64,000 nt of DNA from OCS155 cluster bacterium AG-349-E07 (GCA_003281085.1 QCCZ01000001.1:99452-163451), one strand, 5' to 3'; positions 5,878 to 61,212 are shown, numbered from the stretch's first letter. Notes: generated from the letters alone by a model not told the origin. Translations and numbers: made by a program.

Positions 5878-7005
5878 ATGACCCAAAGTGATATTCTTTT
5901 AAAACATCTCTCAACTGTATTTGACCCTGAATTAGGGGCGAATATCGTTGAATTAGGGATGGTTAAAGATGTTCAGCATGTAGATAAAACAGTAACAATC
6001 AAATTAGCTCTGACAATAGCTGACTGTCCAATGAGGAATCAAATAGAAACAGAAATCAATAGAAAACTAAAGCTTTTGGAAAATGTTGAAACAGTAGAGA
6101 TAGAAATCACTGCAATGGATCAAAAAGATCGAACTGCTGTTATGGAAAAAGCAAGAGAAAAAGCTAGGGAAAATGCTCAACCAACAAATGTTGATCCTAG
6201 AACTAGAGTGATTGCTATTGGAAGTGGAAAAGGTGGAGTAGGGAAATCAACTTTATCTGCAAATATTGCATTAGGTTTAGCAAAAAAAGGATTTCAAACT
6301 GGACTGTTAGATGCAGATATTTGGGGATTCTCAATACCAAGGCTGTTAGGAATAACTGGAAGAATTGAAGCAAATAGTGACAAAAAAATGATTCCTTATG
6401 AGATTGGAAATTTAAAAGTAATCTCAACTGGTCTCATAACAAGCGATGAAGATACTGCATTGATGTGGAGAGGCCTTATGTTAAGTAAAGCACTTGAACA
6501 ATTCTTAACTGACGTGGAATGGGGAGATTTAGATTATCTGATAATTGACCTACCGCCTGGTACAGGAGATATACAAATGGCTCTAAGTAGATTACTTCCA
6601 CAAGCTGAGCTAATTGTTGTTACAACTCCACAATTAATGGCACAAAAAGTTGCAACAAGAGTTGCCGATATGGCAAAGAGAAGTTTCATCCCTCTGTTGG
6701 GAGTAATTGAAAATATGTCATACTTTGAATCAGACACTGGAGAAAAATATAATATTTTTGGTGAGGGTGGAGGTGAAGCTTTGTCGGATAAATTTGGAAT
6801 ACCTCTCTTAGGAAAAGTTCCTATTAGTGAAAACACAAATAATGTAGCAGACAGTGGAACTCCATTAATTGATCAAAATAATTCTATTACGAAAGTAGAG
6901 ATAGAAAAATTAATAAACAATATTGCTATCCAACTTCCTCCAATTATTGATGAAACATGTACTGGAAGACTAGCAAAAGTTTTTGAGGAACTTTCAAATC
7001 AATGA
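5878..7005 (+). CDS. mrp: Mrp/ApbC Fe-S cluster carrier ATPase with N-terminal DUF59/MIP18 domain
   Basis: deviant Walker A GKGGVGKST, ParA-like fold, N-terminal DUF59-like segment; 4-nt ATGA overlap with selA. Confidence 0.85.
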   Translation: MTQSDILLKHLSTVFDPELGANIVELGMVKDVQHVDKTVTIKLALTIADCPMRNQIETEINRKLKLLENVETVEIEITAMDQKDRTAVMEKAREKARENAQPTNVDPRTRVIAIGSGKGGVGKSTLSANIALGLAKKGFQTGLLDADIWGFSIPRLLGITGRIEANSDKKMIPYEIGNLKVISTGLITSDEDTALMWRGLMLSKALEQFLTDVEWGDLDYLIIDLPPGTGDIQMALSRLLPQAELIVVTTPQLMAQKVATRVADMAKRSFIPLLGVIENMSYFESDTGEKYNIFGEGGGEALSDKFGIPLLGKVPISENTNNVADSGTPLIDQNNSITKVEIEKLINNIAIQLPPIIDETCTGRLAKVFEELSNQ

Positions 7006-8297
7006 ACCCTATTTCTGTTAATGAATTAACTGAATCAGTAAACTCTAATTTACCAAGAGATATAAAATCTACGATTGCAAAAAATATACTTTCAGAGGAA
7101 AAAGACTCTGATGTTGCAAAAAATATATTCTCTGAAATTATAAATGATTTAAGTTCAAAAACTCAAAGAGAAGTTGTAAATGCAACTGGTACTGTACTAC
7201 ATACAAACTTAGGTCGTTCTCCAAATAACATAAGCTTTCCTGGAAGTTATACAAATATTGAATACGATTTAAAGACTTTATCTAGAGGAAAAAGAAATGA
7301 ATACCTATCTGTACTTATGAATAACCTTATAGAATCTCAGGATATTGCTTTTGTAAACAACAATGCCTCTTCTCTTTTTCTCTCATTAAAAGCCATTTCT
7401 AAGTCACATAATATTCAAAATGTAATTATTTCTAGAGGTGAAATTATAGAAATTGGAGGCTCATATAGGCTTCCTGAAATAATCAATGAGACTGGTTTAG
7501 ACCTTGTAGAGATAGGCACAACAAACAAGACTAAATTGAGTGATTACAGAAAAGCATTAGAAAAGTACCCAAATTCTTTGATATTAAAAGTTCACAGGTC
7601 AAATTTCTCAATCAAGGGTTTTACAGAGGATGTTTCAATTGAAGAACTCGCTGAATTAAAAAATAAATTTGACGTTTTTCTTTTTCATGACTTGGGGAGT
7701 GGTTTAGTAATTGATAAGAAATTTTTAGAAATTAATAATATAAGTATCTTCAAAGATGAACCATTTGTGCAAGATTCACTTTCTGATGGTGCAAATTTAG
7801 TTATGTTTTCTGGAGACAAATTATTTGGGTCAGTTCAATCTGGAATGATTGCAGGAGATGACGACTTGGTTAATGAAATTAAAAACTACAGTTTGTTTAG
7901 AACTTATCGTTGCTCACCTATGACCTTATTTGAACTTCAAGAGACTGTACTTAAATATATAAATAAACAAGAAAAAGAGATACCTTTTTGGAATCTTATT
8001 ACACAACCTTATTCCTCCTTAGAAGATAGGTGTAAAAATTTGGCTAAATCTATTTCTTTTTCTACAAGCATAGAAAAAGGTGAAAGTGTAATTGGTGGAG
8101 GAACACTACCAGATGTCACTTTAGAATCACCTATCTTACTTATAAATAATGAAAAAACAGTAGATACTGTCAATCAGTTAATTAAAAACGATATCCCCAT
8201 AATTCCAAGAATTATTAAGGATCAAGTTTGTCTTGATTTAAGAAGTGTATTTCATAATCAAGATAACATAATTGTACAAGCATTAAATAATTCATGA
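7002..8297 (+). CDS. selA: L-seryl-tRNA(Sec) selenium transferase (selenocysteine synthase)
   Basis: blocks match E. coli SelA: ATGTVLHTNLGR, EYDL..RGKR, FVNNNA, SRGEIIEIGGSYRLPE, EIGTTNKT, FSGDKLFG..Q.G; overlaps selB start (ATGA). Confidence 0.85.
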   Translation: MNPISVNELTESVNSNLPRDIKSTIAKNILSEEKDSDVAKNIFSEIINDLSSKTQREVVNATGTVLHTNLGRSPNNISFPGSYTNIEYDLKTLSRGKRNEYLSVLMNNLIESQDIAFVNNNASSLFLSLKAISKSHNIQNVIISRGEIIEIGGSYRLPEIINETGLDLVEIGTTNKTKLSDYRKALEKYPNSLILKVHRSNFSIKGFTEDVSIEELAELKNKFDVFLFHDLGSGLVIDKKFLEINNISIFKDEPFVQDSLSDGANLVMFSGDKLFGSVQSGMIAGDDDLVNEIKNYSLFRTYRCSPMTLFELQETVLKYINKQEKEIPFWNLITQPYSSLEDRCKNLAKSISFSTSIEKGESVIGGGTLPDVTLESPILLINNEKTVDTVNQLIKNDIPIIPRIIKDQVCLDLRSVFHNQDNIIVQALNNS

Positions 8298-9967
8298 CCG
8301 TACTTGCAACTGCAGGCCATGTAGATCATGGAAAATCAACTTTTGTAAATTTTTTAACAGGTCAAGAAACTGACAGATTAAAAGAAGAAAAAATCCGCGG
8401 ATTAACTATAAATCTTGGATATACCTATTTTGAATTTAAAAATAGAAGAATATCTATTGTTGATGTCCCTGGTCATGTTGACTACTTTAAAAACACCATT
8501 GCAGGATTTGCAAATGTCGACGGTATAATTTTTTGTATCGACTCTGTTCAGGGGTGGTCTAGACAATCAGAGGAACATTTTCAAGCAATTAGAAATCTGC
8601 AGATTAATAATATTTTTTTTGTACTAACAAAAACAGATTTACTAGATTCTCCAGTTGATAAAAGTTATCTTGAAAAAAAATTAAAAGATGAAAAAGAAAT
8701 AAATTACACAATTGATGAATTTACTTATAAAACTAGCGATCTTAAACTATTTCAAGAAAAAATAGTAAACTTCTTTAAGTCTGACTCATTTGAAAACCCA
8801 AATTCATTATGGATTGATCGTAGTTTTACCAAGGATGGAATTGGTAAAGTTATAACTGGTACTGCTTCTATGGCTTTTGATTTAGAAAATATGTATCTTG
8901 CTAGGACAAACAAATTATTAGAAGTAAAAGAAATACGAAATAGTGAAGATAAAGTTAAAAATATTACATCCACATCAAGAATTGCTATCTCTCTCAAGAA
9001 GGGTACTCAAGACGATATTAGTCGAGGCGATTTGTTAACGAATGGAGTTGTTTCTTCAGGTAAATATATTTTTGCAATTTTAAATGGAAATGATAATGGG
9101 TTTAAGAACAAAGGAAGCAATAGATTGTTTGTTGGGACAATAAATCAAATTGTCAAAAGATTAGAGATTATAAATGCTTCAGAAAAAATTTTAATATATA
9201 TAGAGCTACCAAATAAATTACCAATATTAGAAAACCAGAAAATATTAATTCAAAACATGGTGTCTAATGATTTCATAGGTGGAAAAATTGCATTTGTTTC
9301 GAATAATAATAATTTAGTTAAAACATTTTTCAGACAAGTTCGAAAAACTGAATTTATTGATGTAGAAAAAGCATTTACTCTTCTTTCAGAAAATCTAAAG
9401 GAAAATTCCAAAGATTATATAGATATAAGCAACAAATACATATCAAAAGATTATTTGGAACGTATGACCCAAAAAATTAAGGAAAATATAAAAACTATAA
9501 ATTCGGTTGGTGTTAAAAATTATTTCCATGATCAATTTTTCATAGAGGATAATTATATTGATGAATTAATAGATAAAATCGATGGGTTAAATATTATAAA
9601 TGACCAGTTATTTGTTGATAAAGAAACAGTTGTTGATTTAGAGGTTTACCAGAACGTTATCAAGGAGATGTCGACCGATCTATCAGTTAAACGTGTTGAT
9701 ATAGATAAGTTCAATAAAGAATCTATAAAAGAACTCTTTATGAACGAGTATCTATTTAGAGTTAATAAAAATATAATTATTGGAAAAGAGCATAAATCAG
9801 AGCTTGTTGAAATTCTGGAAAAATTACCTGATATTTTTGATGTATCCGAATTTAAAGAAGCTTCTAATTTATCCAGAAAGTATGCGATACCTTATTTGGA
9901 GTTTTTAGATAAATGTTTATATACTTCAAAAATTAATAGTTCAGGAAAAAGAAAAAAATTAGTTTGA
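8294..9967 (+). CDS. selB: selenocysteine-specific translation elongation factor
   Basis: N-terminal ATAGHVDHGKST, DVPGH GTPase motifs matching SelB; long C-terminal extension ending in a winged-helix-like segment (RKYAIPYLEFLDK). Confidence 0.85.
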   Translation: MTVLATAGHVDHGKSTFVNFLTGQETDRLKEEKIRGLTINLGYTYFEFKNRRISIVDVPGHVDYFKNTIAGFANVDGIIFCIDSVQGWSRQSEEHFQAIRNLQINNIFFVLTKTDLLDSPVDKSYLEKKLKDEKEINYTIDEFTYKTSDLKLFQEKIVNFFKSDSFENPNSLWIDRSFTKDGIGKVITGTASMAFDLENMYLARTNKLLEVKEIRNSEDKVKNITSTSRIAISLKKGTQDDISRGDLLTNGVVSSGKYIFAILNGNDNGFKNKGSNRLFVGTINQIVKRLEIINASEKILIYIELPNKLPILENQKILIQNMVSNDFIGGKIAFVSNNNNLVKTFFRQVRKTEFIDVEKAFTLLSENLKENSKDYIDISNKYISKDYLERMTQKIKENIKTINSVGVKNYFHDQFFIEDNYIDELIDKIDGLNIINDQLFVDKETVVDLEVYQNVIKEMSTDLSVKRVDIDKFNKESIKELFMNEYLFRVNKNIIIGKEHKSELVEILEKLPDIFDVSEFKEASNLSRKYAIPYLEFLDKCLYTSKINSSGKRKKLV

Positions 9968-10219
9968 TACGTAGAGGTTCTCTCGTTTTCTTTCAACTTC
10001 ATTTAAGCCACCCCATACACCAAATGGTTCTGAAATTTCATTTGCTTCATCCAAACATTCAATCTTTACAGGACAACCACTACAGACTGCTTTGGCTTTG
10101 GCTTCCCTTTTTTCTCTATCTTCTTTCTTTTCAAATGTAGCTGGCGGAAAAAAAAGATTGCTACTATGTTGTCTGCAAAGTGCATCGTATTGCCATGTAG
10201 AAACTTTTATTTGAAGCAT
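9959..10219 (-). CDS. whiB: WhiB-family Fe-S transcriptional regulator
   Basis: four Cys (C..CSGCPVKIEC) plus GVWGG motif; 86 aa. Confidence 0.8.
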   Translation of the reverse strand: MLQIKVSTWQYDALCRQHSSNLFFPPATFEKKEDREKREAKAKAVCSGCPVKIECLDEANEISEPFGVWGGLNEVERKRENLYVSN

Positions 10220-13062: not shown

Positions 13063-13389
13063 TCAAATTACTTCAAAAGCTTTAAGTAGCTCATGTTTGT
13101 TTGGTGAATTATCAAAATCTTCTTTTGACTTATGAGCCTCGACATGCCAATCTGTTAATTCATTAATTAATAATTCTTCATCAACGCCGTTAACTTTTAT
13201 GGTTATTTCCCCATTTTGTGGTGCAGCCATGGTCATTATATTGATAATACTTTTTCCATTTGCAACCTTATCATCAAAAAAGATTTCAATGTCGCTTTCA
13301 AACTTGTTACATAATTCCACAAATTTAGCACCTGGGCGAGTATGCAAACCAGGATATATCAGTATTTTAAATTTTTTTTCTACTGCCAT
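13063..13389 (-). CDS. ptsH: phosphocarrier protein HPr
   Basis: GLHTRPGAKFV active-site His motif and KSIINIM segment typical of HPr. Confidence 0.8.
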   Translation of the reverse strand: MAVEKKFKILIYPGLHTRPGAKFVELCNKFESDIEIFFDDKVANGKSIINIMTMAAPQNGEITIKVNGVDEELLINELTDWHVEAHKSKEDFDNSPNKHELLKAFEVI

Positions 13390-13482: not shown

Positions 13483-13866
13483 ATGAAAAATTTAATTTAC
13501 ATCCTTCTGGGAGCAGGTTTTTTAGCAATTATTTCCTCAAGTGCATCAGGGTTTTTAACTACTGAAACAAGTAATACTCTTGATAACCTATATGAAGAAA
13601 CTTTCTACATTGATCCAGAAAATATTGAAATCACAAATAACAACATCGTGATTACACTATCACAACAAAATAAAAATAACGCCGAGAAGAAAATTAATGA
13701 TTGTTTAAATTATTACAAAAAAGTTTATGAAAATTTAAATATAAATTGTGATTTAGTAGTAAAAGAAAGTGTTGCGCTTAATTCTTCTTGTGTGCACAAA
13801 TCAGGCGTTTTTGTTAAAGAAGAAAATCAGGAATATATAAAGATTACTACCTACAGCAACTGCTGA
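13483..13866 (+). CDS. small secreted Cys-containing hypothetical protein
   Basis: N-terminal signal-peptide-like segment; four Cys; no homolog recognised. Confidence 0.3.
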   Translation: MKNLIYILLGAGFLAIISSSASGFLTTETSNTLDNLYEETFYIDPENIEITNNNIVITLSQQNKNNAEKKINDCLNYYKKVYENLNINCDLVVKESVALNSSCVHKSGVFVKEENQEYIKITTYSNC

Positions 13867-14139
13867 TTAGTCGAATATTGAACCTAAAAGACTATCTTCT
13901 TCAGTTTCTATTTCAGCTATTGTGTCACCAACATTTACTATGTCGCCCTCTTCACAAGCTAAGTCTGTAATTTCTCCGGAGTAAGGTGATTCTAGATCCA
14001 TATCAACTTTGTCAGTGGAAATTTCACATATAGTGGCACCCTTCTCAATCTTTGAACCAACTTCAACTTTCCAACTTAAAATTTCAGCTTCGGTCATTTG
14101 ATCAGACATTGCCGGTAATTGAATTTTTTCTTTTGCCAT
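13867..14139 (-). CDS. free-standing lipoyl-attachment domain protein (no E2 catalytic domain)
   Basis: EILSWKVEVGSKIEKGATICEISTDKVDMDLESPYSGEI matches the E2 lipoyl-domain consensus with lipoyl-Lys in TDKV; ORF ends after about 90 aa. Confidence 0.65.
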   Translation of the reverse strand: MAKEKIQLPAMSDQMTEAEILSWKVEVGSKIEKGATICEISTDKVDMDLESPYSGEITDLACEEGDIVNVGDTIAEIETEEDSLLGSIFD

Positions 14140-14147
14140 ATATTTAT

Positions 14148-15131
14148 TTATAACATACTTTTGACTGCATTCGTAATGTCTTCAGCTTGAGGAATAACGT
14201 TTAATTCGAGGTGTTTTGCAGAAGGCATGGGTGAATGTAATCCTGAGACCAGCTTTGGAGCAACTTCAAGTTCATGAAATAACTCGCTTTCAACAATTTT
14301 TGAAATTACTGTCGTTCCCACAGAACTATTGGAAGGAGCTTCTTGACAAACTAAGAGTCTTTTTGTTTTTTTAAGTGAATTTTTAATAGTATCGTAATCT
14401 ATTGGTGAAACTGTCTGAAGGTCAATTAGTTCAATCGAGCAATTTTGTAATTCATCAGCGGCTATTGCTTCTTTTGCAACATTTACCATATTTGAATAGG
14501 CAACTATTGTTATATCGCTTCCTTCTTTAATGAGATTTGCTTTACCCAACATGCTTGATTCCTTGGGAATATCATTAAGTTCTACATTGTCTTTAATTTT
14601 ATATATTAATTTATGTTCCATGAAAATGATTGGGTTAGGATCTACAAAAGAATGGAGCAATAGATCATAGGCATTCTGAGGATTTGAAGGAGTAACTACT
14701 TTTAATCCTGGAACATGACAAAACCATGATTCAAGTGACTGGCTATGTTGTGCTGCCGCCCCTGTTCCAGCTCCACTAGCACCTCTGACAATTATTGGTA
14801 CGTTTACCGTTCCGCCATACATAAAATGAAGTTTTGCAGCTTGATTAACAATTGGATCCATAGCATTAACAATAAAATCACTAAACTGCATTTCGACAAT
14901 GGGTTTTCCGCCAGTCATTGATGCTCCAACAGCTAACCCTGCGATGACATCTTCAGCAATTGGTGTATCTTTAATTCTCTCCTCTCCAAATTGAGCTAGG
15001 AGTCCATCTGTAACTCCAAAGGCACCTCCGTAAATTCCAATATCTTCTCCAGCAATAAACGCTGTGGGGGTTTTTTCTAATATCAAACTAAGGGCTTTAT
15101 TTAATGCCTGTCCAGTTGTTAACTCAGGCAT
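14148..15131 (-). CDS. TPP-dependent 2-oxoacid/acetoin dehydrogenase E1 component beta subunit
   Basis: transketolase-like pyrimidine-binding and C-terminal domains; about 327 aa; overlaps the alpha subunit gene. Confidence 0.85.
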   Translation of the reverse strand: MPELTTGQALNKALSLILEKTPTAFIAGEDIGIYGGAFGVTDGLLAQFGEERIKDTPIAEDVIAGLAVGASMTGGKPIVEMQFSDFIVNAMDPIVNQAAKLHFMYGGTVNVPIIVRGASGAGTGAAAQHSQSLESWFCHVPGLKVVTPSNPQNAYDLLLHSFVDPNPIIFMEHKLIYKIKDNVELNDIPKESSMLGKANLIKEGSDITIVAYSNMVNVAKEAIAADELQNCSIELIDLQTVSPIDYDTIKNSLKKTKRLLVCQEAPSNSSVGTTVISKIVESELFHELEVAPKLVSGLHSPMPSAKHLELNVIPQAEDITNAVKSML

Positions 15132-16083
15132 ACGAATCCTCTTCTAAATTTGTTATTGGGCTGAGTGGGGAATCTAATGCCTGCTTAACCGATTTTCTGA
15201 TTAAATCCTTAATATCTGTATCAATGTCTTTAAGTTGATCTTCACTAATTCCAGACTCAATTAATTTTCCAATGTATCTTTTTATAGGGTCTTTTTCTTC
15301 TTTCCAATATTCAATTTCATCACTTGTTCTGTACAAGTTCCTATCAGATTTTGAGTGTCCCCTGTAGCGATATGTAACTGCTTCAATGAATTTTGGGCCC
15401 CCAGACGATAAAATTTTATTCTTAAAATTTAATACGTTTTCATAGACAGCCTCAACATCATTACCGTCAATTTGAATACTCTCTATTCCATAAGAATTTC
15501 CTCTCGATGCAATTGAGTCGCCTGCAACTGCTTTATCAGTTGCCATTGACATTCCATACTGATTATTCTCACATAAAAATAACACTGGAAGACTCCATAG
15601 CGATGCTAGGTTTAGAGCCTCATGGAATGAGCCTTCATTAACCGCTCCGTCTCCAAAAAAACAAAGTATAATATTGTCTTTTTTCTGCATCTGGAATGAT
15701 AAAGCTGCCCCAACAGAAATTGTTAAACTGCCAGCGACAATTCCATTGGCACCAAGATTACCATTTGATAAATCAGCAATATGCATTGACCCACCACGGC
15801 CTCTACAGTATCCATCTTCTCTACCAAGTAACTCTGCAAACATCTTATAAGGTTCGGCTCCTTTTGCAAGACAATGTCCATGTCCTCTGTGTGTTGAAGT
15901 AATCAAGTCATCTTTTTGAAGAGCTAAACATGCCCCAGCTGCTGTAGCTTCTTGACCGATAGATAAATGCATGGTCCCATGGAGCAAGCCTCTTGAAAAC
16001 ATTTCTTCTAGTGCTTCTTCAAACAACCTGATCAGCATCATCATGCGATGAAGTTCTAATTGAGTGGTTGTACTAAGTGTCAT
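15124..16083 (-). CDS. TPP-dependent 2-oxoacid/acetoin dehydrogenase E1 component alpha subunit
   Basis: TPP-binding motif GDGAVNEG...NN; about 319 aa, in the AcoA/PdhA size range. Confidence 0.85.
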   Translation of the reverse strand: MTLSTTTQLELHRMMMLIRLFEEALEEMFSRGLLHGTMHLSIGQEATAAGACLALQKDDLITSTHRGHGHCLAKGAEPYKMFAELLGREDGYCRGRGGSMHIADLSNGNLGANGIVAGSLTISVGAALSFQMQKKDNIILCFFGDGAVNEGSFHEALNLASLWSLPVLFLCENNQYGMSMATDKAVAGDSIASRGNSYGIESIQIDGNDVEAVYENVLNFKNKILSSGGPKFIEAVTYRYRGHSKSDRNLYRTSDEIEYWKEEKDPIKRYIGKLIESGISEDQLKDIDTDIKDLIRKSVKQALDSPLSPITNLEEDSYA

Positions 16084-16093
16084 TAAAGACTAT

Positions 16094-17347
16094 TTAACTA
16101 GCTTCTTGAAGTTTTCTTAAACTATTAATTAAATTTTCAGGAAGTTCAACTGAGTCTTTTGTAATTGGTTCACCTTTTTTTAGTTCTTTAATAACAGTTG
16201 CGCCTTCTAATAAGCCAAGTGGAATTAAATTGTCTGTATTTGCAACAGGATAAGTTACACCGTATGTGGCAAATCCCCCAATTCCATCAATCTTTTCACC
16301 TTTTTTTAGGTCTTTTTTTGCATGGCCAATAACTTCTGCAATCCATGACTTTGGTTGTAGCCCGGGTTCATTATTTATGATGGCCATCCCAATACTTCTA
16401 GGTGCTTCAATTGAAGCGAGGTGATAAGGCCTATAAAGAGTGTAATATGGACCTTCTCCCATAGATAAATACTCCATTTCTTCAATAACAGTTGGGTTGT
16501 CCGATTTCACAATAGAAAACACTCCTGGTGCTGGTCCAAATGCATAGTCAACTCTTCCAGATTCACTTAAAACACCCCCATCAGCTTTAGGGATAAGGAC
16601 TTTGTTTAATTCCTCTACTGAACTTACTGGTCCGTTCATGCCAATTTGATCTGGTGGTAAATTAATTGCATTTGCTAAAGCCGTCATTTCAATCATAGTT
16701 TTTGAACCATCTTCAAAACTTGCTAGCATTTTTGGATTCATATTCTTCTTAGTAGCTTTTTCTAAACAGGTATCAGGATTTGCAGTTTGGTCTAGTGGGT
16801 TGTTTTTTCCTTTTCCGACACACACTATCTCAAAACCTAAATCCACTGAGAAGTCATATAGCTCTTTACATGCAACTGGTTCATCACCATTCGCAACACT
16901 ATAAACTACATTATTTTTATTTGCTTTATTGGCTAAATACATCCCTATTGTGACATCTGTCTCTACATTCAACATGAGTATATGTTTTTGTGCCTCAATA
17001 CAGGCATCGGCAACCTCCGCACCAACCCATGGCACTCCAGTTGCTTCGAATACAATATCTATTGGTAGTTCTGCAAGAGCAGCTGCATTATCTACTACAC
17101 CACCTTGTCCGCTTTGGATAGACTTTGACGCCTCCTTGTTGTGTTTTACATACTCAACTCCAGCAAGATGTAATGCATTCTCAGCTCTTCCAATATCTAT
17201 ATCAGCACAAGCAACGAGGTTCATTCCTGGTATTTTCCCAATTTGTGCAGCAAGGCCGGAACCCATTTGGCCAGCACCAGCCAACCCAACTCTTACTGGT
17301 CTACCTAAATCTTTTTCACGAGCAATTAATAATTCTGTATAGTTCAA
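16094..17347 (-). CDS. NAD(P)-binding oxidoreductase with C-terminal SAF-like domain (COG4091 / homoserine-dehydrogenase-like family)
   Basis: N-terminal Rossmann GLAGAGQMG; C-terminal GEKIDGIGGFATYG SAF-like segment; about 417 aa. Confidence 0.5.
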   Translation of the reverse strand: MNYTELLIAREKDLGRPVRVGLAGAGQMGSGLAAQIGKIPGMNLVACADIDIGRAENALHLAGVEYVKHNKEASKSIQSGQGGVVDNAAALAELPIDIVFEATGVPWVGAEVADACIEAQKHILMLNVETDVTIGMYLANKANKNNVVYSVANGDEPVACKELYDFSVDLGFEIVCVGKGKNNPLDQTANPDTCLEKATKKNMNPKMLASFEDGSKTMIEMTALANAINLPPDQIGMNGPVSSVEELNKVLIPKADGGVLSESGRVDYAFGPAPGVFSIVKSDNPTVIEEMEYLSMGEGPYYTLYRPYHLASIEAPRSIGMAIINNEPGLQPKSWIAEVIGHAKKDLKKGEKIDGIGGFATYGVTYPVANTDNLIPLGLLEGATVIKELKKGEPITKDSVELPENLINSLRKLQEAS

Positions 17348-17703
17348 TTGTTTATCCTTAAATTATCCCCAATGCTTATATTAGGTTTATTATCAAATGT
17401 ACACCTGACATCTCCAAGCTGTGCTTCCTCAGTTGAAGAGTCAAGTTTTAAAACTAAATGACCTAAATTTTTAAAGTTTTCATTGGCTACAGGCCCTACA
17501 GAGACAACTTCTAAATTAGAATCTGAAAGACTTATTTTTGTTCCAACTACTATTTCACCAGAGATTTGCTCTAGTTTATGTATTACCGCAAAATCTTGAA
17601 GTTCCTCTGGTGCATTGTCACCAAAAAAAACTACAATTCCTTCATCTAAAAATAAATTAGCTTGTTCGCCTATTCTTACTATTTCTGAAGAATAAATTTG
17701 CAT
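17344..17703 (-). CDS. srlB: PTS glucitol/sorbitol-family EIIA component
   Basis: aligns by eye to E. coli SrlB (EIVRIGEQA vs TITRIGASA; LGHLVLKLDS vs LGHVTLRFDG); about 119 aa. Confidence 0.7.
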   Translation of the reverse strand: MQIYSSEIVRIGEQANLFLDEGIVVFFGDNAPEELQDFAVIHKLEQISGEIVVGTKISLSDSNLEVVSVGPVANENFKNLGHLVLKLDSSTEEAQLGDVRCTFDNKPNISIGDNLRINN

Positions 17704-18080
17704 TAAGCTTCAGTAACTTGATCCTCAGAAACTCCAGAAACAAAGTTCTCTTCTTTAATAAATTGAGCAAGTGGACCTGCTGGTGTAGTGTCATGAATAT
17801 CAATCGTTGGTACGCCCTTCATAGGATATACACCGATTCTCGCAGTTCCTCCACAATCAATTACTGCACAAGCCATGGCTTTAAAGCTTCCCTCTGGTGA
17901 TGATTTAAAGCCATCAAAGGCTTCCGCCCCAGTTAAATCAGCAATTTTTTGAGCAACTGGATGAATTCCTCCACCAGTAACGCAAACAATGTATTTTTTT
18001 TCATCAGTTGGTTGTATTTCTAAAGGGCCTCCCCAACCACTTGGCCCTGCTTCTACTTTTACTTTTTTATAATCTGCCAT
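17703..18080 (-). CDS. PTS glucitol/sorbitol-family EIIB domain protein (homolog of the SrlE N-terminal domain)
   Basis: GWGGPLEI, AVIDCGGT, PTIDIHDT, GPLAQFI blocks match the SrlE EIIB domain. Confidence 0.7.
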   Translation of the reverse strand: MADYKKVKVEAGPSGWGGPLEIQPTDEKKYIVCVTGGGIHPVAQKIADLTGAEAFDGFKSSPEGSFKAMACAVIDCGGTARIGVYPMKGVPTIDIHDTTPAGPLAQFIKEENFVSGVSEDQVTEA

Positions 18081-18100
18081 AGTTTCTCCTTTAAAAATAT

Positions 18101-18130
18101 GTAACGCTCTGATTTTAGTCAGAGCGTTAC
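18101..18130 (-). terminator. intra-operon perfect 12-bp-stem hairpin (GTAACGCTCTGA-TTTTAG-TCAGAGCGTTAC) followed on the transcript by AUAUUUUUAA, then the RBS of the EIIB gene; partial terminator or attenuator candidate
   Basis: palindrome read directly from the sequence, placed between the EIIC-domain and EIIB genes. Confidence 0.4.
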
Positions 18131-18157
18131 AAATTTAAAAATTGTTAAGTTATGTCT

Positions 18158-18682
18158 TTACAAACCTAGTGCAAATAAATAACCAACAACGACTGAGATT
18201 GGTCCAGTAATCATTCTACTTGTTAGAACTGCTGGAACACCAACCGTAACTGTCTCCGGTTCTGCTTCACCAAGAGCCAGACCAACTGGTACGAAATCAC
18301 AACCAACCTGTGGGTTAATTGCAAATAAAGCTGGAAGCGCCATTGAAACATCAATGTTTCCACGTCCAATTTCAGTACCAATTAGAACACCAACGATCTG
18401 AGCAATTACTGCACCAGGTCCTAGTAGTGGTGATAAAACAGGTATTGCGCATATGATACAAACTATCATTAATCCGCCTAAACTACTTGCAAAACCTTTT
18501 ATACCATTTGCAATAGCGTCACCAACACCGGTTTCTAAAATTAAACCAATGACAAAAGTAACGAATGCCATAAATGGAATTATTGTTTTTAAACATAGGT
18601 CAACAGCATCTCGACCTGCTTGGAACAATGTTCCAACCACGCCACCAACTGATCGACCAATTCTCTCTATTAAAGCTTGCAT
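18158..18682 (-). CDS. PTS glucitol/sorbitol-family EIIC domain protein (homolog of the SrlE C-terminal membrane domain)
   Basis: SPLLGPGAVIAQIVG, LPALFAINPQVGCDFVPVGLALGEAEPETV blocks resemble the SrlE membrane domain as I recall it; about 174 aa, several TM. Confidence 0.6.
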   Translation of the reverse strand: MQALIERIGRSVGGVVGTLFQAGRDAVDLCLKTIIPFMAFVTFVIGLILETGVGDAIANGIKGFASSLGGLMIVCIICAIPVLSPLLGPGAVIAQIVGVLIGTEIGRGNIDVSMALPALFAINPQVGCDFVPVGLALGEAEPETVTVGVPAVLTSRMITGPISVVVGYLFALGL

Positions 18683-19224
18683 TATTCAACACCTGCCCTT
18701 CTTGACGTCATAATGTTATAGATAATATCAGTTACGATACCTCTAATTAATATGACTACAAGGCCAGCAAGAAGATATCTAACTGCTAAAGCAGTTACCA
18801 TATCTGGTGCAACTATTTCTACACCTGCTGCAATCCCTAACCATACAAACAACTCTCCACCATTCGCATGTGGAAAAATTCCTGTAATGGGATGAACAAA
18901 GCTTACTGCTGAATCATAAAATGCTGGTTTATGTTTTTCAGGCAAAAAGGTACCGAATGTATAGCAAACTGGGTTAGTAAGCATAAATACAGCTACAAAC
19001 GGTAAAAGAGTATAACGAACAGGCATGTAAATTGCCCCTTCTTGAGAAGCCCATTTTGCAAAGCCCTCAACTCTTTCCTCACCGATGAACTTGACTAAAG
19101 CATTAACTGCAGTCAAGAACACAACCACAATTGGAATAATTCCAGTTGTGAAACCAACAAATACATCAGCAGCGGTTCTAAATACTTGGATAAAGGCTTC
19201 TGCGCCTGCTACCAAAGCATCCAT
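18682..19224 (-). CDS. srlA: PTS glucitol/sorbitol-family EIIC2 component
   Basis: close match to E. coli SrlA (FLPEKHKPAFY vs FMPEKYKPSYY; GIFPHANGGELFVWLGIA vs GLFPHINPGELFVYLGIA). Confidence 0.75.
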   Translation of the reverse strand: MDALVAGAEAFIQVFRTAADVFVGFTTGIIPIVVVFLTAVNALVKFIGEERVEGFAKWASQEGAIYMPVRYTLLPFVAVFMLTNPVCYTFGTFLPEKHKPAFYDSAVSFVHPITGIFPHANGGELFVWLGIAAGVEIVAPDMVTALAVRYLLAGLVVILIRGIVTDIIYNIMTSRRAGVE

Positions 19225-19242: not shown

Positions 19243-19656
19243 TTAATTTGTCGAATTACTATCTGCTTTACTTTGAAGTTTTTTTATCAAAGTGTCAGCT
19301 GCCATTTTGGCAGCATCCCAGATAGGTTCTTTGTTTTCTGAGTTAGCAATTTCATTTAATGTTTTGCCATTAAATAACGAAACTTTTTTACTTTTTGCAA
19401 AAGTAGTTACCCCCTCCAGAGTAAGACCGTTAACAATGGTTGAATTTACATCAGCAGAGATTGCTAGATAGATTTTTTTTCTCCCCCATTTAGGTTGATT
19501 TACACCTATAGCGACTTCCAAGCCAGGTCCTTTAATGCTGTTTACTGCATCTAAGAAACCAGTAGCCTGTTTTTTAGCAAGATACATCTGTAAAACCCAC
19601 ATAAGTGCGAGTGTTACAAATATGACACCAAGTGCATATGGTGAACTAGATAACAA
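19243..19656 (-). CDS. gutM: GutM-like glucitol-operon activator
   Basis: single N-terminal TM segment plus GRKKIYLAISADVNSTIVNGLTLEGVTTFAKSKK resembling GutM. Confidence 0.55.
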   Translation of the reverse strand: MLSSSPYALGVIFVTLALMWVLQMYLAKKQATGFLDAVNSIKGPGLEVAIGVNQPKWGRKKIYLAISADVNSTIVNGLTLEGVTTFAKSKKVSLFNGKTLNEIANSENKEPIWDAAKMAADTLIKKLQSKADSNSTN

Positions 19657-19785: not shown

Positions 19786-20466
19786 TTAAATCATTTCCTC
19801 AAGTTTAAAGATATCTTCTATAAAAGTTACCTTCATGTTTCTTGGATCGCCAGGAATTACTACTGCCTCAAGCTCAGAATATTTTGATACGCATTCTGTT
19901 GTGTCTACTGCTTGCCATTTATCTAATTTTGCTAATTCATAGGATTTCCAAAGTTCTGAAGCTGGAAATATCTGTGGAGTTTGTATCTCTACAATTGTTT
20001 CTTGGATTTCTTCTTTGTTAAATTCCTGTTTTTTCATAAGATTATCTGAGTTATACCCAGGAGCTGAAGCTCCATATTTTTTTGCAACATCAATAAGCTC
20101 GTCTAACAAATAACTAGGTAACAGAGGTCTTGCGCCATCATGAATTAAAATTAGGTCTTCTTCATTTATATCTGGTCTTTCTTTTAAATAAAGAAGTCCT
20201 TGATATTCACTTTCATGTCTTGTGTTCCCACCAATTGTTACACCAGATAATTTTTTGGGATTAACTAGCTGAATTACATTATTAGTTTTTTCCCAGTCTT
20301 CATCCCTTACAACCAAAATTATTGAGTCAACTTTATCGGAATTATCTAGTGTCTCTAGTGGCCAGGAAAGTGCTGGCTTACCGCCAATTGGAAAGTAAAC
20401 TTTGTTTTCTTCATTATTAAACCTGTCGCTAGAACCACCAGCTAGAAGAATAGAATGTACTTTCAA
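19786..20466 (-). CDS. IspD/TarI-family polyol-phosphate cytidylyltransferase
   Basis: N-terminal ILLAGGSSDRF and GGKP nucleotide-binding motifs; about 226 aa; 4-nt overlap with ptsI. Confidence 0.65.
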   Translation of the reverse strand: MKVHSILLAGGSSDRFNNEENKVYFPIGGKPALSWPLETLDNSDKVDSIILVVRDEDWEKTNNVIQLVNPKKLSGVTIGGNTRHESEYQGLLYLKERPDINEEDLILIHDGARPLLPSYLLDELIDVAKKYGASAPGYNSDNLMKKQEFNKEEIQETIVEIQTPQIFPASELWKSYELAKLDKWQAVDTTECVSKYSELEAVVIPGDPRNMKVTFIEDIFKLEEMI

Positions 20467-22094
20467 TTTATAATTTCTTGAATAATCGTTCTAACCTCAT
20501 CAGCATTATTCTGTTGTAAAATCTGATCTTTTATCTTTTGTTTGTTAATTTTTGAGTGTGTATCTAAAGCATCAAATACAAAAGGAGCTGCTGAAGGTGC
20601 CATACTAAATATCTTTAAACCTAAAATGTATAAAACAAATGCTGAGACGGGATCTGATGACATTTCACCACATACTGACACCTCGGTATTATTTGCATTA
20701 CAACAATCAATTACATTAGAAATTGCCCTAAGTACCGCTGGATGAAGTGGGTCTTGGTACGGGCTTAAATTATTGTTGCCACGGTCTGCAGCCATAATGT
20801 ACTGCGTCAAATCGTTGGTGCCAATAGATATGAAATCAACAATTTCTGAAAACTTATCAGCAATCAATGCTGACGAGGGTGTCTCTACCATGATACCGAG
20901 TGGGGGAACTTCAACATTTAAGTTATTCGCTATTTTAGCAACAAACTCTTTTGCTTTTATAAAATCTTCTATAGTAGAAATCATTGGAAACATAATTTTT
21001 AATCTTCCTAATGATTTAGAATTTAAGATTGATTTTATTTGTGTGTCAAATAATTCAATATCATCCAACAATAATCTAATACCCCTTACGCCAAGAAAGG
21101 GGTTTTCTTCTGAAGGTAAATTCAGATAATCTACTTGTTTGTCACCTCCAATATCAAGAGTTCTATAGACAATTATTCCAGTGAATTTTTGAGTTATTTG
21201 TTCTAGAACCCTTGTTTGTTCCTCAAGTGTTGGAATGGTTGTGTTGTCTAAATATATAAACTCGGACCTAAATAAGCCAATGGAGTTTAAAAAGGGATGA
21301 TTAAATGAAATAATCTCCTCTAAAGAACCAATATTAACTCTGAATTCTACTCCTAATTCTTCGTACTTTTTTTTAGTAAAATTATCAATCAACTTTGTTA
21401 TATTGCCTTGTTTTTCTTTGAATTCAGATATCTGATTCTCACTTGGAGAAATAACAATATTCCCCGTATCACCGTCAATTGTCATTAACTCGCCATCTGC
21501 AATATTGTCGAGCAAACTTTTTACGCCGATCACGCAAGGGATACCCAAATTCTTTGCAACGATAACAGCATGCGAAGTAAACCCTCCTTCTTTTAATATA
21601 ATTCCATTAACTTTACTCAAATCCATTGATGATGTATCTGCAGGTGTTAAGTCTTCAGCGATTAAAATAGTGTTTTCGTTTAAAGTAATTTCTCTTTCAA
21701 TGTTTTGCATATTGAAAACAAGGTGTTTTCCTACAGAGAGTATGTCTTCAGCTCGTTGCTTAAAATAAACATCTTCCATTGATTCAAATACACTTGCAGT
21801 GGACGTAAAAATACTATAAACCTCTTCGACTGAAGAATCTGAATTTTGATTTAGTTGAGCCACTATTTCAGGATCTTGAAGGATCAATATGTATGCATCT
21901 AAAATGTCAGCTTCATCATTTCTTTCTTTTGAGCGGAAATCAAGGATTTGAGAACTAAATTTTTCAATCAGTTGTTTGCTAGCCTCAACATGAGTGAGGA
22001 TTGCTTCTTTATCAAAATCTATCTCATTTTCATAAACAAATGATGAACCTATTGCAACACCTAATGAAGCACCTAGTCCCTTAACACTTGTCAT
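20463..22094 (-). CDS. ptsI: phosphoenolpyruvate--protein phosphotransferase (PTS enzyme I)
   Basis: phospho-His region GGFTSHAVIVAKNLGIPCVIG; GTNDLTQY; CGEM motifs. Confidence 0.85.
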   Translation of the reverse strand: MTSVKGLGASLGVAIGSSFVYENEIDFDKEAILTHVEASKQLIEKFSSQILDFRSKERNDEADILDAYILILQDPEIVAQLNQNSDSSVEEVYSIFTSTASVFESMEDVYFKQRAEDILSVGKHLVFNMQNIEREITLNENTILIAEDLTPADTSSMDLSKVNGIILKEGGFTSHAVIVAKNLGIPCVIGVKSLLDNIADGELMTIDGDTGNIVISPSENQISEFKEKQGNITKLIDNFTKKKYEELGVEFRVNIGSLEEIISFNHPFLNSIGLFRSEFIYLDNTTIPTLEEQTRVLEQITQKFTGIIVYRTLDIGGDKQVDYLNLPSEENPFLGVRGIRLLLDDIELFDTQIKSILNSKSLGRLKIMFPMISTIEDFIKAKEFVAKIANNLNVEVPPLGIMVETPSSALIADKFSEIVDFISIGTNDLTQYIMAADRGNNNLSPYQDPLHPAVLRAISNVIDCCNANNTEVSVCGEMSSDPVSAFVLYILGLKIFSMAPSAAPFVFDALDTHSKINKQKIKDQILQQNNADEVRTIIQEIIN

Positions 22095-56739: not shown

Positions 56740-57375
56740 TTATGTTGGAGTATCTCCCTCATTAAAATCAATAAACAACTTACCTGCATACACAGGTCCC
56801 ATATAAGCTACAGTGCTTCCATCAAACATTTCAGACTCTGATTCACTATCTAGTGCTGCCTGTAATTTTTCAACAGCTACATTCATTTCTTCCTCAGAAT
56901 CCCAGAAGTTCCAACTAATAGCGCTACTTCCGTCAAAAACTGCACCTGTTACTTGAAGGCCTTCAGACTCTTCATAAATTGGTTCTACTTTTTCTTTGAG
57001 GAAGCTCAATACTGCGTCTGTGTCTTTTGCAACACCAACAACCAACCTTAAATAGCTTGGTCTTGTACTGTCCTTAGCCATAGTCTTATATACCTTGCCA
57101 TAAACTGCATCTCCTTGATAAATTACAGGAGGTGCCGACATCATTCCAGCTGCTTCTGATAATACGCCTTGTATTTTTTCTTCTACAGCATCTACAGCTT
57201 CCTTACTTTCATAAGCAGCCAAATTAACGCCAGAAGTCTCCCCTGTAATAGCAGCCATCATCGTTAGAAGTCCAGGTGTGCCATCAAACTCTGGCATAAC
57301 TTTTTCTTTAACAAAAGATATGGCTTCGTCTTTTTTTCCATCCTGAAGAGATGGAATCGTTATTCTAAAGTACAT
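56740..57375 (-). CDS. paralog 4 of a tandem double ABM/Dabb-like domain protein family
   Basis: MYFR... N-terminus; internal two-fold repeat; paralogous to 57391, 58739 and 59416. Confidence 0.45.
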   Translation of the reverse strand: MYFRITIPSLQDGKKDEAISFVKEKVMPEFDGTPGLLTMMAAITGETSGVNLAAYESKEAVDAVEEKIQGVLSEAAGMMSAPPVIYQGDAVYGKVYKTMAKDSTRPSYLRLVVGVAKDTDAVLSFLKEKVEPIYEESEGLQVTGAVFDGSSAISWNFWDSEEEMNVAVEKLQAALDSESESEMFDGSTVAYMGPVYAGKLFIDFNEGDTPT

Positions 57376-57390
57376 AATTTCCTTTCTTTT

Positions 57391-58035
57391 TTAATTAATT
57401 GAGTTCCCTGCTTTAAAGTCGGTAAATTGCCTCATAGCAAACGGTTCACCATAATAATCTGTAAATCCATCCATTAGTGGCATGAATTTTTCGTATACAT
57501 TTTCATCAGCATTAAGTTTTTCATCAAAACTGTGCTTTGCATCATGAGAAGTCCAAAACTCAAACAAAACAAGTGAGTTATCATCGATTTTAATTGATCC
57601 GTAAGAAATAATTCCCTCATCGTTTTCAAGTTTTGGTAGATAAATTTCTTTTTGAAGATTCATATATTCGTCAGCATTTTTTACATCCAACTTTGCGAAT
57701 GCCAAAAAGAAAGAATCTCTTGGTTCTTCAACTAGAGAGTCCTTTAGGGTCTTGCCAGTAAATAGTTCACCTTCATAAACCCTTGGAAAACTAGCAAGCA
57801 GATCTTGAATTTGCATCAAGTTTTCGTTTCTAATTTGTGCAAATTTATCTGCAGTCTCTTTGTCCTTCATGAATGCAATACCTAGGTTTACATTATCTTT
57901 TGGATTAAAAAAGGCTATTGAATACAAGTCTCCTTTAAGGATCTCTAAAGCTGGGAAGCCTGTGTTTTCAAAAAACTCTTTTAGTTCATCAAGCTTCCCA
58001 TCTTGAAATAAAATACTGACTGCTACTGCATACAT
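57391..58035 (-). CDS. paralog 3 of the double ABM/Dabb-like domain family
   Basis: shares the FEFWTSHDAKH block with the 59416 paralog (FNFWTSHDAAH). Confidence 0.45.
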   Translation of the reverse strand: MYAVAVSILFQDGKLDELKEFFENTGFPALEILKGDLYSIAFFNPKDNVNLGIAFMKDKETADKFAQIRNENLMQIQDLLASFPRVYEGELFTGKTLKDSLVEEPRDSFFLAFAKLDVKNADEYMNLQKEIYLPKLENDEGIISYGSIKIDDNSLVLFEFWTSHDAKHSFDEKLNADENVYEKFMPLMDGFTDYYGEPFAMRQFTDFKAGNSIN

Positions 58036-58099
58036 TTGTTTTATTTTTTACTCTACGGAATAATTTCCTATTTAAATGTTTCCATTACTTACCTCAGAA

Positions 58100-58726
58100 T
58101 TATTCTGCTGTGTTTAAAGATGCTCTAAACGAAACACCTAGAGCCCAAACTGTAGCAGGGTAAAGTATCACTCCGCCTAATATCAAGATAATCAAATTTG
58201 CAGCATCAGGAATTAAACCAAAGGCTGAACCTAAACCATTAGTCATTACTAAAATGGCTGCTCCATATCCTGCAATAACACCCCAGCTTGGTAAGAGATC
58301 TACCTTACTGCTTCGCAAAACAGTAATTGTAAATATTCCAAGAAAAAGAGCCCAAACAGGACCATTGGTTCCTGTTGTTTGCAAAACTTGATTAGTTGTC
58401 AAAAAAGCATTGTCGCTATTTGAAGCTAAGGGTCCTGCAAATGCATCTTGAACAAAAATGCACTGAGTAACAAAAGCTATTGTTCCAGTAATTCTTACAT
58501 ATGGATTATTGTCGTCTCCAAACAACTTAGTTGTTAGAGCAAAAACAAATAACAATGCAAACCCAGTAATCACATTTAGTGTCGAGATAACTGGTCCCCA
58601 TGTTTCGTTGTAACCAACGACTGTTGGATCAAGAGCAAATGCCTGAATTAAGAAATTAGGAATTATTCCAATAACAAAAATTCTAGCCATGCTTGAGCCA
58701 ATTGCTACTTCCTTAGTACTTAACAT
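58100..58726 (-). CDS. membrane protein (5-6 TM), distinct from the NIWRY family
   Basis: hydrophobicity; embedded in the operon. Confidence 0.35.
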   Translation of the reverse strand: MLSTKEVAIGSSMARIFVIGIIPNFLIQAFALDPTVVGYNETWGPVISTLNVITGFALLFVFALTTKLFGDDNNPYVRITGTIAFVTQCIFVQDAFAGPLASNSDNAFLTTNQVLQTTGTNGPVWALFLGIFTITVLRSSKVDLLPSWGVIAGYGAAILVMTNGLGSAFGLIPDAANLIILILGGVILYPATVWALGVSFRASLNTAE

Positions 58727-58738
58727 ATATTTCCTTTC

Positions 58739-59389: not shown

Positions 59390-59415
59390 TTTCCTCCTTT
59401 AACAAATCAATAGTA

Positions 59416-60057: not shown

Positions 60058-60060
60058 AAA

Positions 60061-60594: not shown

Positions 60595-60633
60595 TTTATT
60601 TTCTTTCTCCTTTTTCTAATATTCTCTTTCTTT

Positions 60634-61191: not shown

Positions 61192-61212
61192 CGATTAAAC
61201 TCCTGTTCTTTT

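Follow-up and report, generated by a model that had tools for sequence, protein, structure and literature searches.

A lipoyl carrier truncated from an E2 subunit accompanies an E1 dehydrogenase and a DXR-II-type oxidoreductase in marine Actinomarinales

A 64,000-nucleotide (nt) stretch of the genome of OCS155 cluster bacterium AG-349-E07 (GCA_003281085.1, QCCZ01000001.1:99452-163451; hereafter the window, whose positions are used throughout) encodes the alpha and beta subunits of an E1-type dehydrogenase followed by a 90-amino-acid (aa) open reading frame (ORF) that holds a single lipoyl domain. The 90-aa protein is the surviving lipoyl "swinging arm" of an E2 subunit, fixed across the genome-streamlined Actinomarinales under strong purifying selection, and we consider it highly probable that it is a real, selected, truncated E2. 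It represents a natural, selected case in which an E1 of the 2-oxoacid dehydrogenase type is paired with a detached single lipoyl domain. The first-pass annotation of the window treated the E1 pair and the lipoyl domain as a stand-alone set; they proved instead to be the 3′ end of an operon that also encodes a glucitol-family phosphotransferase system (PTS), an oxidoreductase of the DRL/DXR-II type and an IspD-family cytidylyltransferase. The best overall explanation, for which we judge the chances about even, is that the truncated E2 would serve a polyol-catabolic module whose E2 and E3 activities are supplied in trans.

The lipoyl ORF (13867-14139, minus strand) contains ISTDKVDMDLESPYSGEI, and its Pfam Biotin_lipoyl match (PF00364, 1.7e-21) spans positions 2-73 of the 73-position profile; 2-oxoacid_dh (PF00198) and E3_binding (PF02817) domains are absent from it in the same scan. 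Its content of a complete lipoyl domain only is as first described, and so is its spacing, with an 8-nt overlap between the E1α and E1β genes (15124-15131) and an 8-nt gap between E1β and the lipoyl ORF. The annotation had further held that no E2 catalytic domain or E3 is encoded in cis, and had set aside a frameshift into a catalytic domain. Both claims stand: a tblastn search of the six window frames with 42 full-length E2 homologues found the lipoyl ORF alone, with neither a catalytic-domain remnant nor a second E2, no Lpd-type CxxxxC redox motif of an E3 occurs in the 64-kb window, the next ORF is convergent, and the length of 90 aa is fixed in relatives. The proposed check for a nearby lipoate ligase or LipB turned up neither of these, nor LipA, among the window ORFs scanned, which were a part of the whole; dxs and dxr were likewise missing from these ORFs. 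The window protein, all Actinomarinales variants and full E2s keep the lipoyl-lysine motif TDKVDM, and the lysine of this DK(A/V) hairpin motif is predicted to be lipoylatable.

The 90-aa protein is homologous to the N-terminus of full E2s and ends directly after EEDSLLGSIFD. Since the equivalent motif in full actinobacterial E2s (e.g. DADDLLGGLFD) sits between the lipoyl domain and the Ala/Pro-rich linker, the truncation coincides precisely with a domain boundary. All of the diverged Actinomarinales contigs studied, whose E1α is 87-90% identical to that of the window, encode the protein at a length of exactly 90 aa together with the abutting convergent ORF, and its lipoyl-lysine motif and C-terminal tail are essentially invariant. 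The ratio of nonsynonymous to synonymous substitution rates (dN/dS) of the lipoyl ORF across these contigs is 0.03-0.10 where computable, with dS saturated, and compares with 0.04-0.07 for E1α, 0.06-0.10 for E1β and 0.05-0.07 for DRL. On account of the conserved length and the low dN/dS, a chance ORF or pseudogene was rejected.

An alignment of DRL, the oxidoreductase encoded directly before E1α, was scanned against one genome per GTDB species, and neighbours within 10 kb were recorded at 80 DRL-anchored loci (L numbers below). Outside Actinomarinales, the lipoyl domain of every assessable locus is the N-terminus of a protein with E3-binding and 2-oxoacid_dh domains, and no short form occurs among the 42 E2 homologues of other lineages. 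As extracted, these proteins measure about 340-530 aa, those with an intact DHRxxDG motif mostly 377-465 aa; the E2 of L002 reaches its Ala/Pro linker at the contig end, and that of L057 is frameshifted and continues in another frame. Because orthologous clusters in five phyla encode a complete E2, the detached lipoyl carrier is a lineage-specific truncation and not a separate kind of system. Small, free carriers of the swinging-arm type are known, among them Bacillus subtilis YngHB/BLAP, the mycobacterial biotin/lipoyl carrier NF004547, GcvH and LbpA. The window protein resembles these stand-alone biotinyl/lipoyl carriers in size and independence but is demonstrably derived from an E2 N-terminus, and we know of none among them that is a dedicated partner of an E1αβ dehydrogenase. 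Its best NCBIfam match is NF011457, the AcoC N-terminus, while the match to NF004547 is weak (28 bits versus a cutoff of 75). The literature searched contained no report of a stand-alone lipoyl partner of an E1.

A second route to E2 loss is seen in acI-type freshwater loci (L025, L044 and L054), whose E2s are short (342-363 aa) and keep the lipoyl and E3-binding domains. The catalytic domain of the L054 E2 scores 33 bits, compared with 139-306 bits in three typical full E2s, and the DHRxxDG motif of the three proteins reads IDLRALDF, IDLRYCDF or IDLNFCDF, so that the catalytic His is replaced by Leu. Other variants are DHRVSDP in L068 (Nanopelagicales) and DHRVGDC in three Streptomyces loci (L008-L010). 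The acI-type loci lost the E2 catalytic His independently of the Actinomarinales truncation. Acyl transfer to coenzyme A (CoA) by the cognate E2 therefore appears dispensable in two streamlined planktonic lineages, and the lipoyl arm does not. The truncation in Actinomarinales and the dead E2 core in acI, as an intermediate state, would form an evolutionary series on which parts of such a complex are indispensable.

The 319-aa, thiamine diphosphate (TPP)-binding E1α (15124-16083, minus strand) matches Pfam E1_dh at 1.5e-80, and the 327-aa E1β (14148-15131, minus strand) matches Transket_pyr at 1e-36 and Transketolase_C at 1.5e-27; their structural matches in the PDB reach 1e-57 and 1e-67, respectively. 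The E1α RGHS and the E1β AQHSQ and GED motifs, which we take to correspond to human αHis263, βHis128 and βGlu59, are intact in the window proteins, and with them the residues for cofactor activation and reductive lipoyl acylation are retained. The closest homologues of the window E1α are mostly Actinomarinales sequences at ≥86% identity, and the closest relatives of window proteins are TARA and Actinomarina records; a search against representatives of 50%-identity clusters gave about 49% identity at best. Compared with E1α proteins of DRL-linked clusters in five phyla, the window E1α is 50-62% identical, and the rhizobial clusters give 52-53% for E1α and 44-47% for E1β. The E1α identity is 58-62% whether or not the E2 of the cluster is intact.

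Several features set these E1 proteins apart from pyruvate dehydrogenase (PDH). The window E1α scores 350 bits against TIGR03182, below the PDH E1α equivalog cutoff of 393.85. In 50 cluster-type E1α proteins compared with human PDHA1, aromatic residues in two segments, presumably active-site segments of the human enzyme, are replaced by Thr or His that are 100% invariant (T37, H65 and H70); H154 stands in place of Phe, and there is a fixed two-residue insertion. The cluster-type E1β has an invariant Lys174. A search for cluster-specific basic, phosphate-binding residues in E1 found no new invariant Arg. The invariant E1α replacements and the E1β Lys174 suggest a substrate other than pyruvate, without naming which.

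Relative to known complexes, the locus resembles acetoin dehydrogenase (AcoA/AcoB/AcoC/AcoL), PDH and branched-chain 2-oxoacid dehydrogenase (BCKDH) in encoding an α2β2-type TPP-dependent E1 (PF00676, PF02779/PF02780) followed by a lipoyl protein. In contrast to these systems, it has no E2 catalytic domain, E3-binding domain or E3 in cis; its E1α falls below the PDH equivalog cutoff and carries invariant family-specific substitutions, and its genes sit in a PTS/DXR-II operon and not in an aco or pdh operon. Since the defining E2, with lipoyl and peripheral-subunit-binding domains plus a DHRxxDG core, is missing, an assignment to the AcoABC or PDH complexes would be misplaced. By sequence, E1αβ is placed in the PDH/acetoin-type E1 family, and the locus would work like such a complex minus the E2 core.

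The closest functional analogy comes from the same phylum, in which the actinobacterial OdhA/KGD and E2p of the pyruvate and 2-oxoglutarate dehydrogenase (PDH-ODH) supercomplex carry lipoyl and acyltransferase domains on separate polypeptides and use the lipoyl-lysine in trans (PMC10415282). Both systems split lipoyl and catalytic functions. They differ in that the E1 of OdhA carries an E2 domain and borrows the lipoyl domain of a full E2p, whereas the free lipoyl domain of the window would borrow an E2 core; a free single lipoyl carrier was not described for OdhA systems in the literature searched. We lean towards the 90-aa protein being the cognate acceptor of this E1, with E2 and E3 supplied in trans. 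The first-pass annotation had offered a trans-acting E2/E3 or a non-CoA, acetoin-type cleavage as explanations of the detached carrier; both stay live, with the amendment that the carrier is a lineage truncation of a full E2.

The operon lies in a low-GC (~33%) window with a WhiB gene at 9959-10219, as expected of a marine actinobacterium of the "Candidatus Actinomarinales" type. Window ORFs were assigned with Pfam and NCBIfam profiles. From the PTS enzyme I (EI) gene through the lipoyl gene, the minus-strand genes are tightly packed and translationally coupled. The string begins with EI (PtsI, 20463-22094; TIGR01417 PTS_I_fam, 427 bits versus a cutoff of 341.7), whose position is unchanged in Actinomarinales contigs, and continues with the IspD-family cytidylyltransferase (19786-20466; Pfam IspD, 3.3e-32), which overlaps EI by 4 nt, a GutM-type glucitol operon activator (19243-19656; Pfam GutM, 1.5e-15), the SrlA-like glucitol-family EIIC (18682-19224; EII-GUT, 3.3e-66), the C-terminal membrane part of EIIBC (18158-18682; EIIBC-GUT_C, 8.5e-45), EIIB, equivalent to the N-terminal part of SrlE (17703-18080; EIIBC-GUT_N, 4.5e-52), and EIIA (17344-17703; PTSIIA_gutA, 7.7e-29). 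DRL (16094-17347; DRL_cat, PF21135, 1.1e-62; SAF, 6.9e-07) then precedes E1α, E1β and the lipoyl gene. On the plus strand, a convergent 127-aa ORF without a family (13483-13866) lies outside the system and bounds the operon, and beyond it the HPr phosphocarrier is encoded on the minus strand (13063-13389; TIGR01003, 74.7 bits versus a cutoff of 47.9). The locus holds a complete glucitol-family PTS of TC 4.A.4 (EIIA-gut, EIIBC-GUT_N, EIIBC-GUT_C, EII-GUT, EI and HPr), which is self-contained there since EI and HPr are encoded too.

The operon shares the EIIC, EIIBC, EIIA and GutM families with the enterobacterial srlAEBD-gutM-gutR operon. It differs from the latter in having EI and HPr in the same locus, in its divided EIIBC, and in lacking an SrlD-type sorbitol-6-phosphate dehydrogenase of the short-chain dehydrogenase/reductase (SDR) family, whose place is taken by DRL, E1αβ, the lipoyl protein and IspD. 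In the window, EIIBC is encoded by two separate genes whose order is reversed, the C-terminal membrane part preceding EIIB (17703-18682), an arrangement found in most actinobacterial loci; Streptomyces, Cryobacterium, Bacillota and rhizobia have the usual N-to-C fusion. The 77-nt gap between the two genes contains, on the minus strand, a hairpin with a perfect 13-bp stem followed by a T-run (18100-18131; arm-loop-arm TGTAACGCTCTGA-CTAAAA-TCAGAGCGTTACA). It is the sole such element in the window, where none is expected by chance, and diverged Actinomarinales contigs keep it nearly unchanged despite saturation at synonymous sites. It may act as an attenuator within the operon, as an operator or to stabilise the RNA.

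The IspD-like protein scores above the Pfam cutoff (112.5 bits) and reaches 138.5 bits against TIGR00453, short of the equivalog cutoff of 181.3, with a weaker match to ribitol-5-phosphate cytidylyltransferase. In acI, loci carry two adjacent IspD-family genes (L068, 11281-11988 and 12317-12934; L025, 11577-12269 and 12580-13344), and the cluster-linked IspD scores 144 bits versus 40-58 bits for the carD-linked one, which occupies the usual housekeeping position. In addition, 33 loci encode a zinc-ribbon-like protein of ~105 aa without a Pfam family, with two CxxC pairs and a basic C-terminal half, nearly always directly after the cluster IspD-like gene (e.g. L068, 11991-12320; L010, 16165-16476). 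Neither tblastn nor a hidden Markov model search found this partner in the window.

The gene combination recurs well beyond Actinomarinales. Within 10 kb of DRL, a glucitol-family PTS is encoded at 60 of the 80 loci, E1αβ at 47, both jointly at 44, a lipoyl or E2 gene at 45 and an IspD-like gene at 40, and DRL is directly followed by E1α at 21/80. The taxa represented include Nitriliruptorales, Nocardia, Mycolicibacterium, Streptomyces, Amycolatopsis, Cryobacterium, Klenkia, Rubrobacter and Planktophila/Nanopelagicales, as well as Caldilineaceae, Ktedonobacterales, Alkalispirochaeta, Thermovorax and Tepidanaerobacteraceae. The core of uptake/phosphorylation, DRL and E1αβ-E2 recurs in Actinomycetota, Chloroflexota, Spirochaetota, Bacillota and Alphaproteobacteria. 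Plasmids of Rhizobium sp. B230/85 and Nitratireductor thuwali encode GutM-IIC-IIB-IIA-PtsP with DRL-E1α-E1β-E2. On an accessory plasmid of Sinorhizobium meliloti Rm41, an ABC sugar transporter and a sugar kinase replace the PTS and are followed by a SorC-type regulator and DRL-E1α-E1β-E2-LpdA-LipA; uptake and phosphorylation are thus swappable around an invariant core formed by DRL and, after it, the lipoyl-dependent complex. In Thermovorax (L055), the operon consists of GutM-IIC-IIBC-IIA-DRL-E1α-E1β-E2-E3 with no further enzyme. As compact operons such as this one and that of S. meliloti encode no other enzymes, two enzymatic steps must carry the phosphorylated substrate into central metabolism.

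E3 is encoded in cis only in L023 and L055 (2/80 loci) and on the S. meliloti plasmid. Its absence is the norm for the cluster and is therefore uninformative at the window locus. NCBI annotates the conserved cluster genes with generic names only, and the literature searched held no paper joining DXR-like enzymes with lipoyl or glucitol systems and none on methylerythritol catabolism. The result is a conserved, unnamed cluster in at least five phyla, with hosts including Streptomyces, Mycolicibacterium, rhizobial plasmids, acI and Actinomarinales, that couples DXR-II to a lipoyl-dependent dehydrogenase complex.

The window oxidoreductase is classed by sequence as a DXR-II (DRL)-type enzyme. It matches the Brucella abortus DRL structures 3UPY/3UPL at an E-value of 1.3e-102 with 42-43% identity, shares their DRL_cat and SAF domains, and is 41-45% identical to published members of the DXR-II clade (e.g. 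from S. fredii NGR234 and Listeria), compared with 32.5% to DLO2 of Cupriavidus necator N-1 and about 24% to a Paracoccus denitrificans record; clade memberships for DXR-II and DLO follow PMC3847144. In a neighbour-joining distance tree rooted on two DLO-like proteins, in which DLO1 has no confirmed representative, the window DRL falls inside the DXR-II family with the Brucella enzyme. The rhizobial DRLs coupled to E1 share 72-75% identity with the verified Brucella DXR-II, and all belong to one family with the DLO-like proteins as outgroup. The neighbours of DLO-like homologues (31-36% identity) include quinol monooxygenases, kinases and isomerases but no E1. At the DXR-II signature residues Gly121, Thr229, His250, Arg320 and Val351 (PMC3847144), the window enzyme keeps G121, T229 and R320, with Asn for H250 and Ile for V351, and the exact GTHRV signature occurs at 23/80 DRL loci.

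These components can be arranged into a single route, in which each step remains conditional. The glucitol-family PTS, with EI, HPr, EIIA, EIIB and EIIC at the locus, would import and phosphorylate a sugar alcohol. DRL would turn the polyol phosphate into an acyloin-type keto-sugar phosphate, most parsimoniously by way of 2-C-methyl-D-erythritol (ME), its 4-phosphate (MEP) and DXP (1-deoxy-D-xylulose 5-phosphate). DRL is closely related to enzymes whose interconversion of DXP and MEP is verified (PMC3847144). DXP is a substituted acetoin (CH3-CO-CHOH-R), and an acetoin-type split of it yields hydroxyethyl-TPP and glyceraldehyde 3-phosphate (GAP), the reverse of the ligation catalysed by DXS. 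E1αβ would accordingly cleave CH3-CO-CHOH-R with TPP in the manner of acetoin dehydrogenase E1, a likeness to that enzyme in the proposed reaction itself, freeing GAP and reductively acetylating the lipoyl-lysine of the 90-aa protein as acyl and electron acceptor. Since no cognate E2 core is present, we propose that an E2 catalytic domain from another locus, either a housekeeping E2p or one of the OdhA type, passes the acetyl group of the acetyl-dihydrolipoyl protein on to CoA, and a shared lipoamide dehydrogenase would reoxidise the arm. The IspD-family enzyme would open a side branch from MEP to its cytidyl derivative CDP-ME, an isoprenoid salvage. The scheme from ME through MEP and DXP to acetyl-lipoyl and GAP uses every module, with IspD as the salvage branch, and the sorbitol PTS of Salmonella is reported to transport ME (Testa et al. 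2004).

We rate ME/MEP/DXP as the pathway substrate at a little under an even chance. More tentatively still, we propose that the operon is a previously unrecognised catabolic and salvage route for ME (or 1-deoxy-D-xylulose) that enters the MEP pathway backwards: a PTS, or an ABC transporter with a kinase, would deliver MEP, DXR-II in reverse would form DXP, and a "DXP dehydrogenase complex" (E1αβ-E2-E3) would release acetyl-CoA and GAP. Catabolism would then be the primary and ancestral role of DXR-II, and ultra-small planktonic Actinobacteria would make do with a free lipoyl carrier (Actinomarinales) or a dead E2 (acI), borrowing housekeeping E2/E3. This proposal departs from the description of DXR-II as a biosynthetic replacement of DXR-I, as the window DRL sits in an uptake/catabolic operon and would run from MEP to DXP. 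Verified DXR-II enzymes are also present alongside DXR-I in some bacteria and, in Chloroflexus and Finegoldia, in the absence of any MEP pathway, which was left unexplained (PMC3847144); a catabolic role would explain both distributions. If the methylerythritol/DXP reading is true, this redundancy question becomes testable in culturable hosts, and a carbon source would be named for two of the most abundant aquatic actinobacterial groups whose locus is so far annotated "sorbitol PTS".

Several observations weigh against the methylerythritol/DXP route. Because DXR runs preferentially towards MEP, its reversal must be pulled along by the E1 step. Asn stands at the His250 position of the window DRL, and in several cluster DRLs Ala replaces Thr229 or Gly121; with such variation at signature residues, DXR-II chemistry need not hold for every one of them. 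In Listeria and Ligilactobacillus, PTS-Gut and DRL occur without E1, and in Ligilactobacillus fsa and tkt follow the DRL-PTS cluster, where an ordinary ketose phosphate fits better than DXP. Chloroflexota DRLs (L021, L041, L064, L069, L072 and similar) carry the exact GTHRV signature with neither PTS nor E1. The IspD paralogue and its zinc-ribbon partner have no obvious catabolic role. A survey of Actinomarinales genomes records the locus merely as a sorbitol PTS (PMC7771536), and we infer all biochemical steps of the pathway from sequence. In their own right, the GTHRV Chloroflexota DRLs are flanked by Zn-dependent polyol dehydrogenases, two FGGY kinases, a fucose-isomerase-like protein and ABC transporters, a different, likewise uncharacterised sugar-catabolic context for DXR-II.

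The alternative that survives best keeps the architecture and changes the substrate, and we consider it unlikely. The PTS would import glucitol or another ordinary polyol, DRL would be a plain polyol-phosphate dehydrogenase, and E1αβ would cleave another acyloin or ketose phosphate, for instance to glycolyl-lipoyl, or would merely be a co-regulated acetoin- or pyruvate-type dehydrogenase. The family of the PTS and its published annotation as sorbitol uptake, the lack in the operon of an SDR-type sorbitol-6-phosphate dehydrogenase that DRL could replace, the fsa and tkt genes of Ligilactobacillus and the variable signature positions of the cluster DRLs all fit such a reading. Transketolase (TK)/E1-like enzymes with E2-like partners also move C2 units of ketose phosphates to lipoyl in the biosynthesis of quinocarcin and naphthyridinomycin. 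However, oxidation of sorbitol 6-phosphate yields fructose 6-phosphate directly, with no need for a dehydrogenase complex, and glycolyl-CoA is not a central metabolite. The DRL-E1α-E1β-E2 adjacency is kept in five phyla, its products being the sole operon enzymes in L055 and S. meliloti, and the close identity of E1-coupled rhizobial DRLs to the verified Brucella DXR-II also counts against a plain polyol-phosphate dehydrogenase.

It is more improbable that no E2 acts in trans and that the acyl group leaves the dihydrolipoyl protein independently of CoA, being hydrolysed to acetate or handed to another acceptor, with E3 reoxidising the arm and a yield of NADH and GAP only. The window has no E2, and the loss of E2 catalysis twice in streamlined plankton, of the whole domain in Actinomarinales and of the catalytic His in acI, suggests that cognate CoA transfer is dispensable. 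Against this, the thioester would be wasted, the operon encodes no thioesterase or alternative acyltransferase, and Actinobacteria already divide lipoyl and E2 domains between proteins (PMC10415282), which makes discharge in trans the simpler assumption.

We regard a biosynthetic repurposing in Actinomarinales and acI as very unlikely. E1αβ would here be a DXS-like carboligase that joins pyruvate and GAP to DXP and forms, with DRL and IspD, an alternative upper MEP pathway, E2 being unnecessary and the lipoyl protein regulatory or vestigial. DXS applies TPP chemistry to the same C2-C3 bond of DXP, the E1 half-reaction proposed above being the reverse of its carboligation; unlike the two-subunit E1αβ of a lipoyl-dependent family, it is a single-chain, non-lipoyl, decarboxylating carboligase. 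The repurposing is favoured by the position of IspD inside the operon, translationally coupled to EI, by the stronger IspD match of the cluster-linked copy in acI, by the loss of E2 catalysis, and by mutations in E. coli aceE (PDH E1) that are reported to restore strains in which the first step of the MEP pathway is defective (PMC3424233). Yet a carboligase needs no lipoyl acceptor, and purifying selection on the lipoyl domain with its Lys motif and tail is as strong as on E1; the E1 His residues for lipoyl acylation and the PTS genes are kept, and E1α divergence is not raised in lineages without a functional E2. Finally, the idea that the ORF is a dead relic of an E2 gene in decay or a product of misassembly, which the full E2s of relatives might bring to mind, is effectively refuted by the clean cut at the domain boundary and by the fixed length, identical C-terminus and low dN/dS across independent metagenome contigs whose synonymous sites have diverged to saturation, and a downstream E2 remnant is missing because the conserved convergent gene abuts the lipoyl stop codon.

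This convergent 127-aa ORF has a signal-peptide-like N-terminus and several Cys, its stop codon is separated from that of the lipoyl gene by 0 nt, and it is kept across Actinomarinales with a dN/dS of 0.06-0.25. In some Actinomarinales (L086/L087, 12773-16026), a mannitol PTS and mannitol-1-phosphate dehydrogenase island lies between this ORF and HPr. A GSDH-family gene occurs between HPr and a CNNM gene in all examined contigs extending past HPr (L081-L084, L086 and L087), and not in the window.

Elsewhere in the window, SelA and SelB, for selenocysteine synthesis and the Sec-specific elongation factor, are encoded at 7002-9967, and ARAGORN found no tRNA gene, tRNA-Sec included, in the whole window. 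An Rfam scan of the window gave zero matches, and a promoter scan showed no enrichment relative to shuffled sequence. Eight tandem ORFs of two paralogue families occupy 56740-61842 on the minus strand, and the one member scanned (57391-58035) has no Pfam match. They encode four soluble proteins of ~212 aa with 25-35% mutual identity and three to four membrane proteins of ~180-209 aa.

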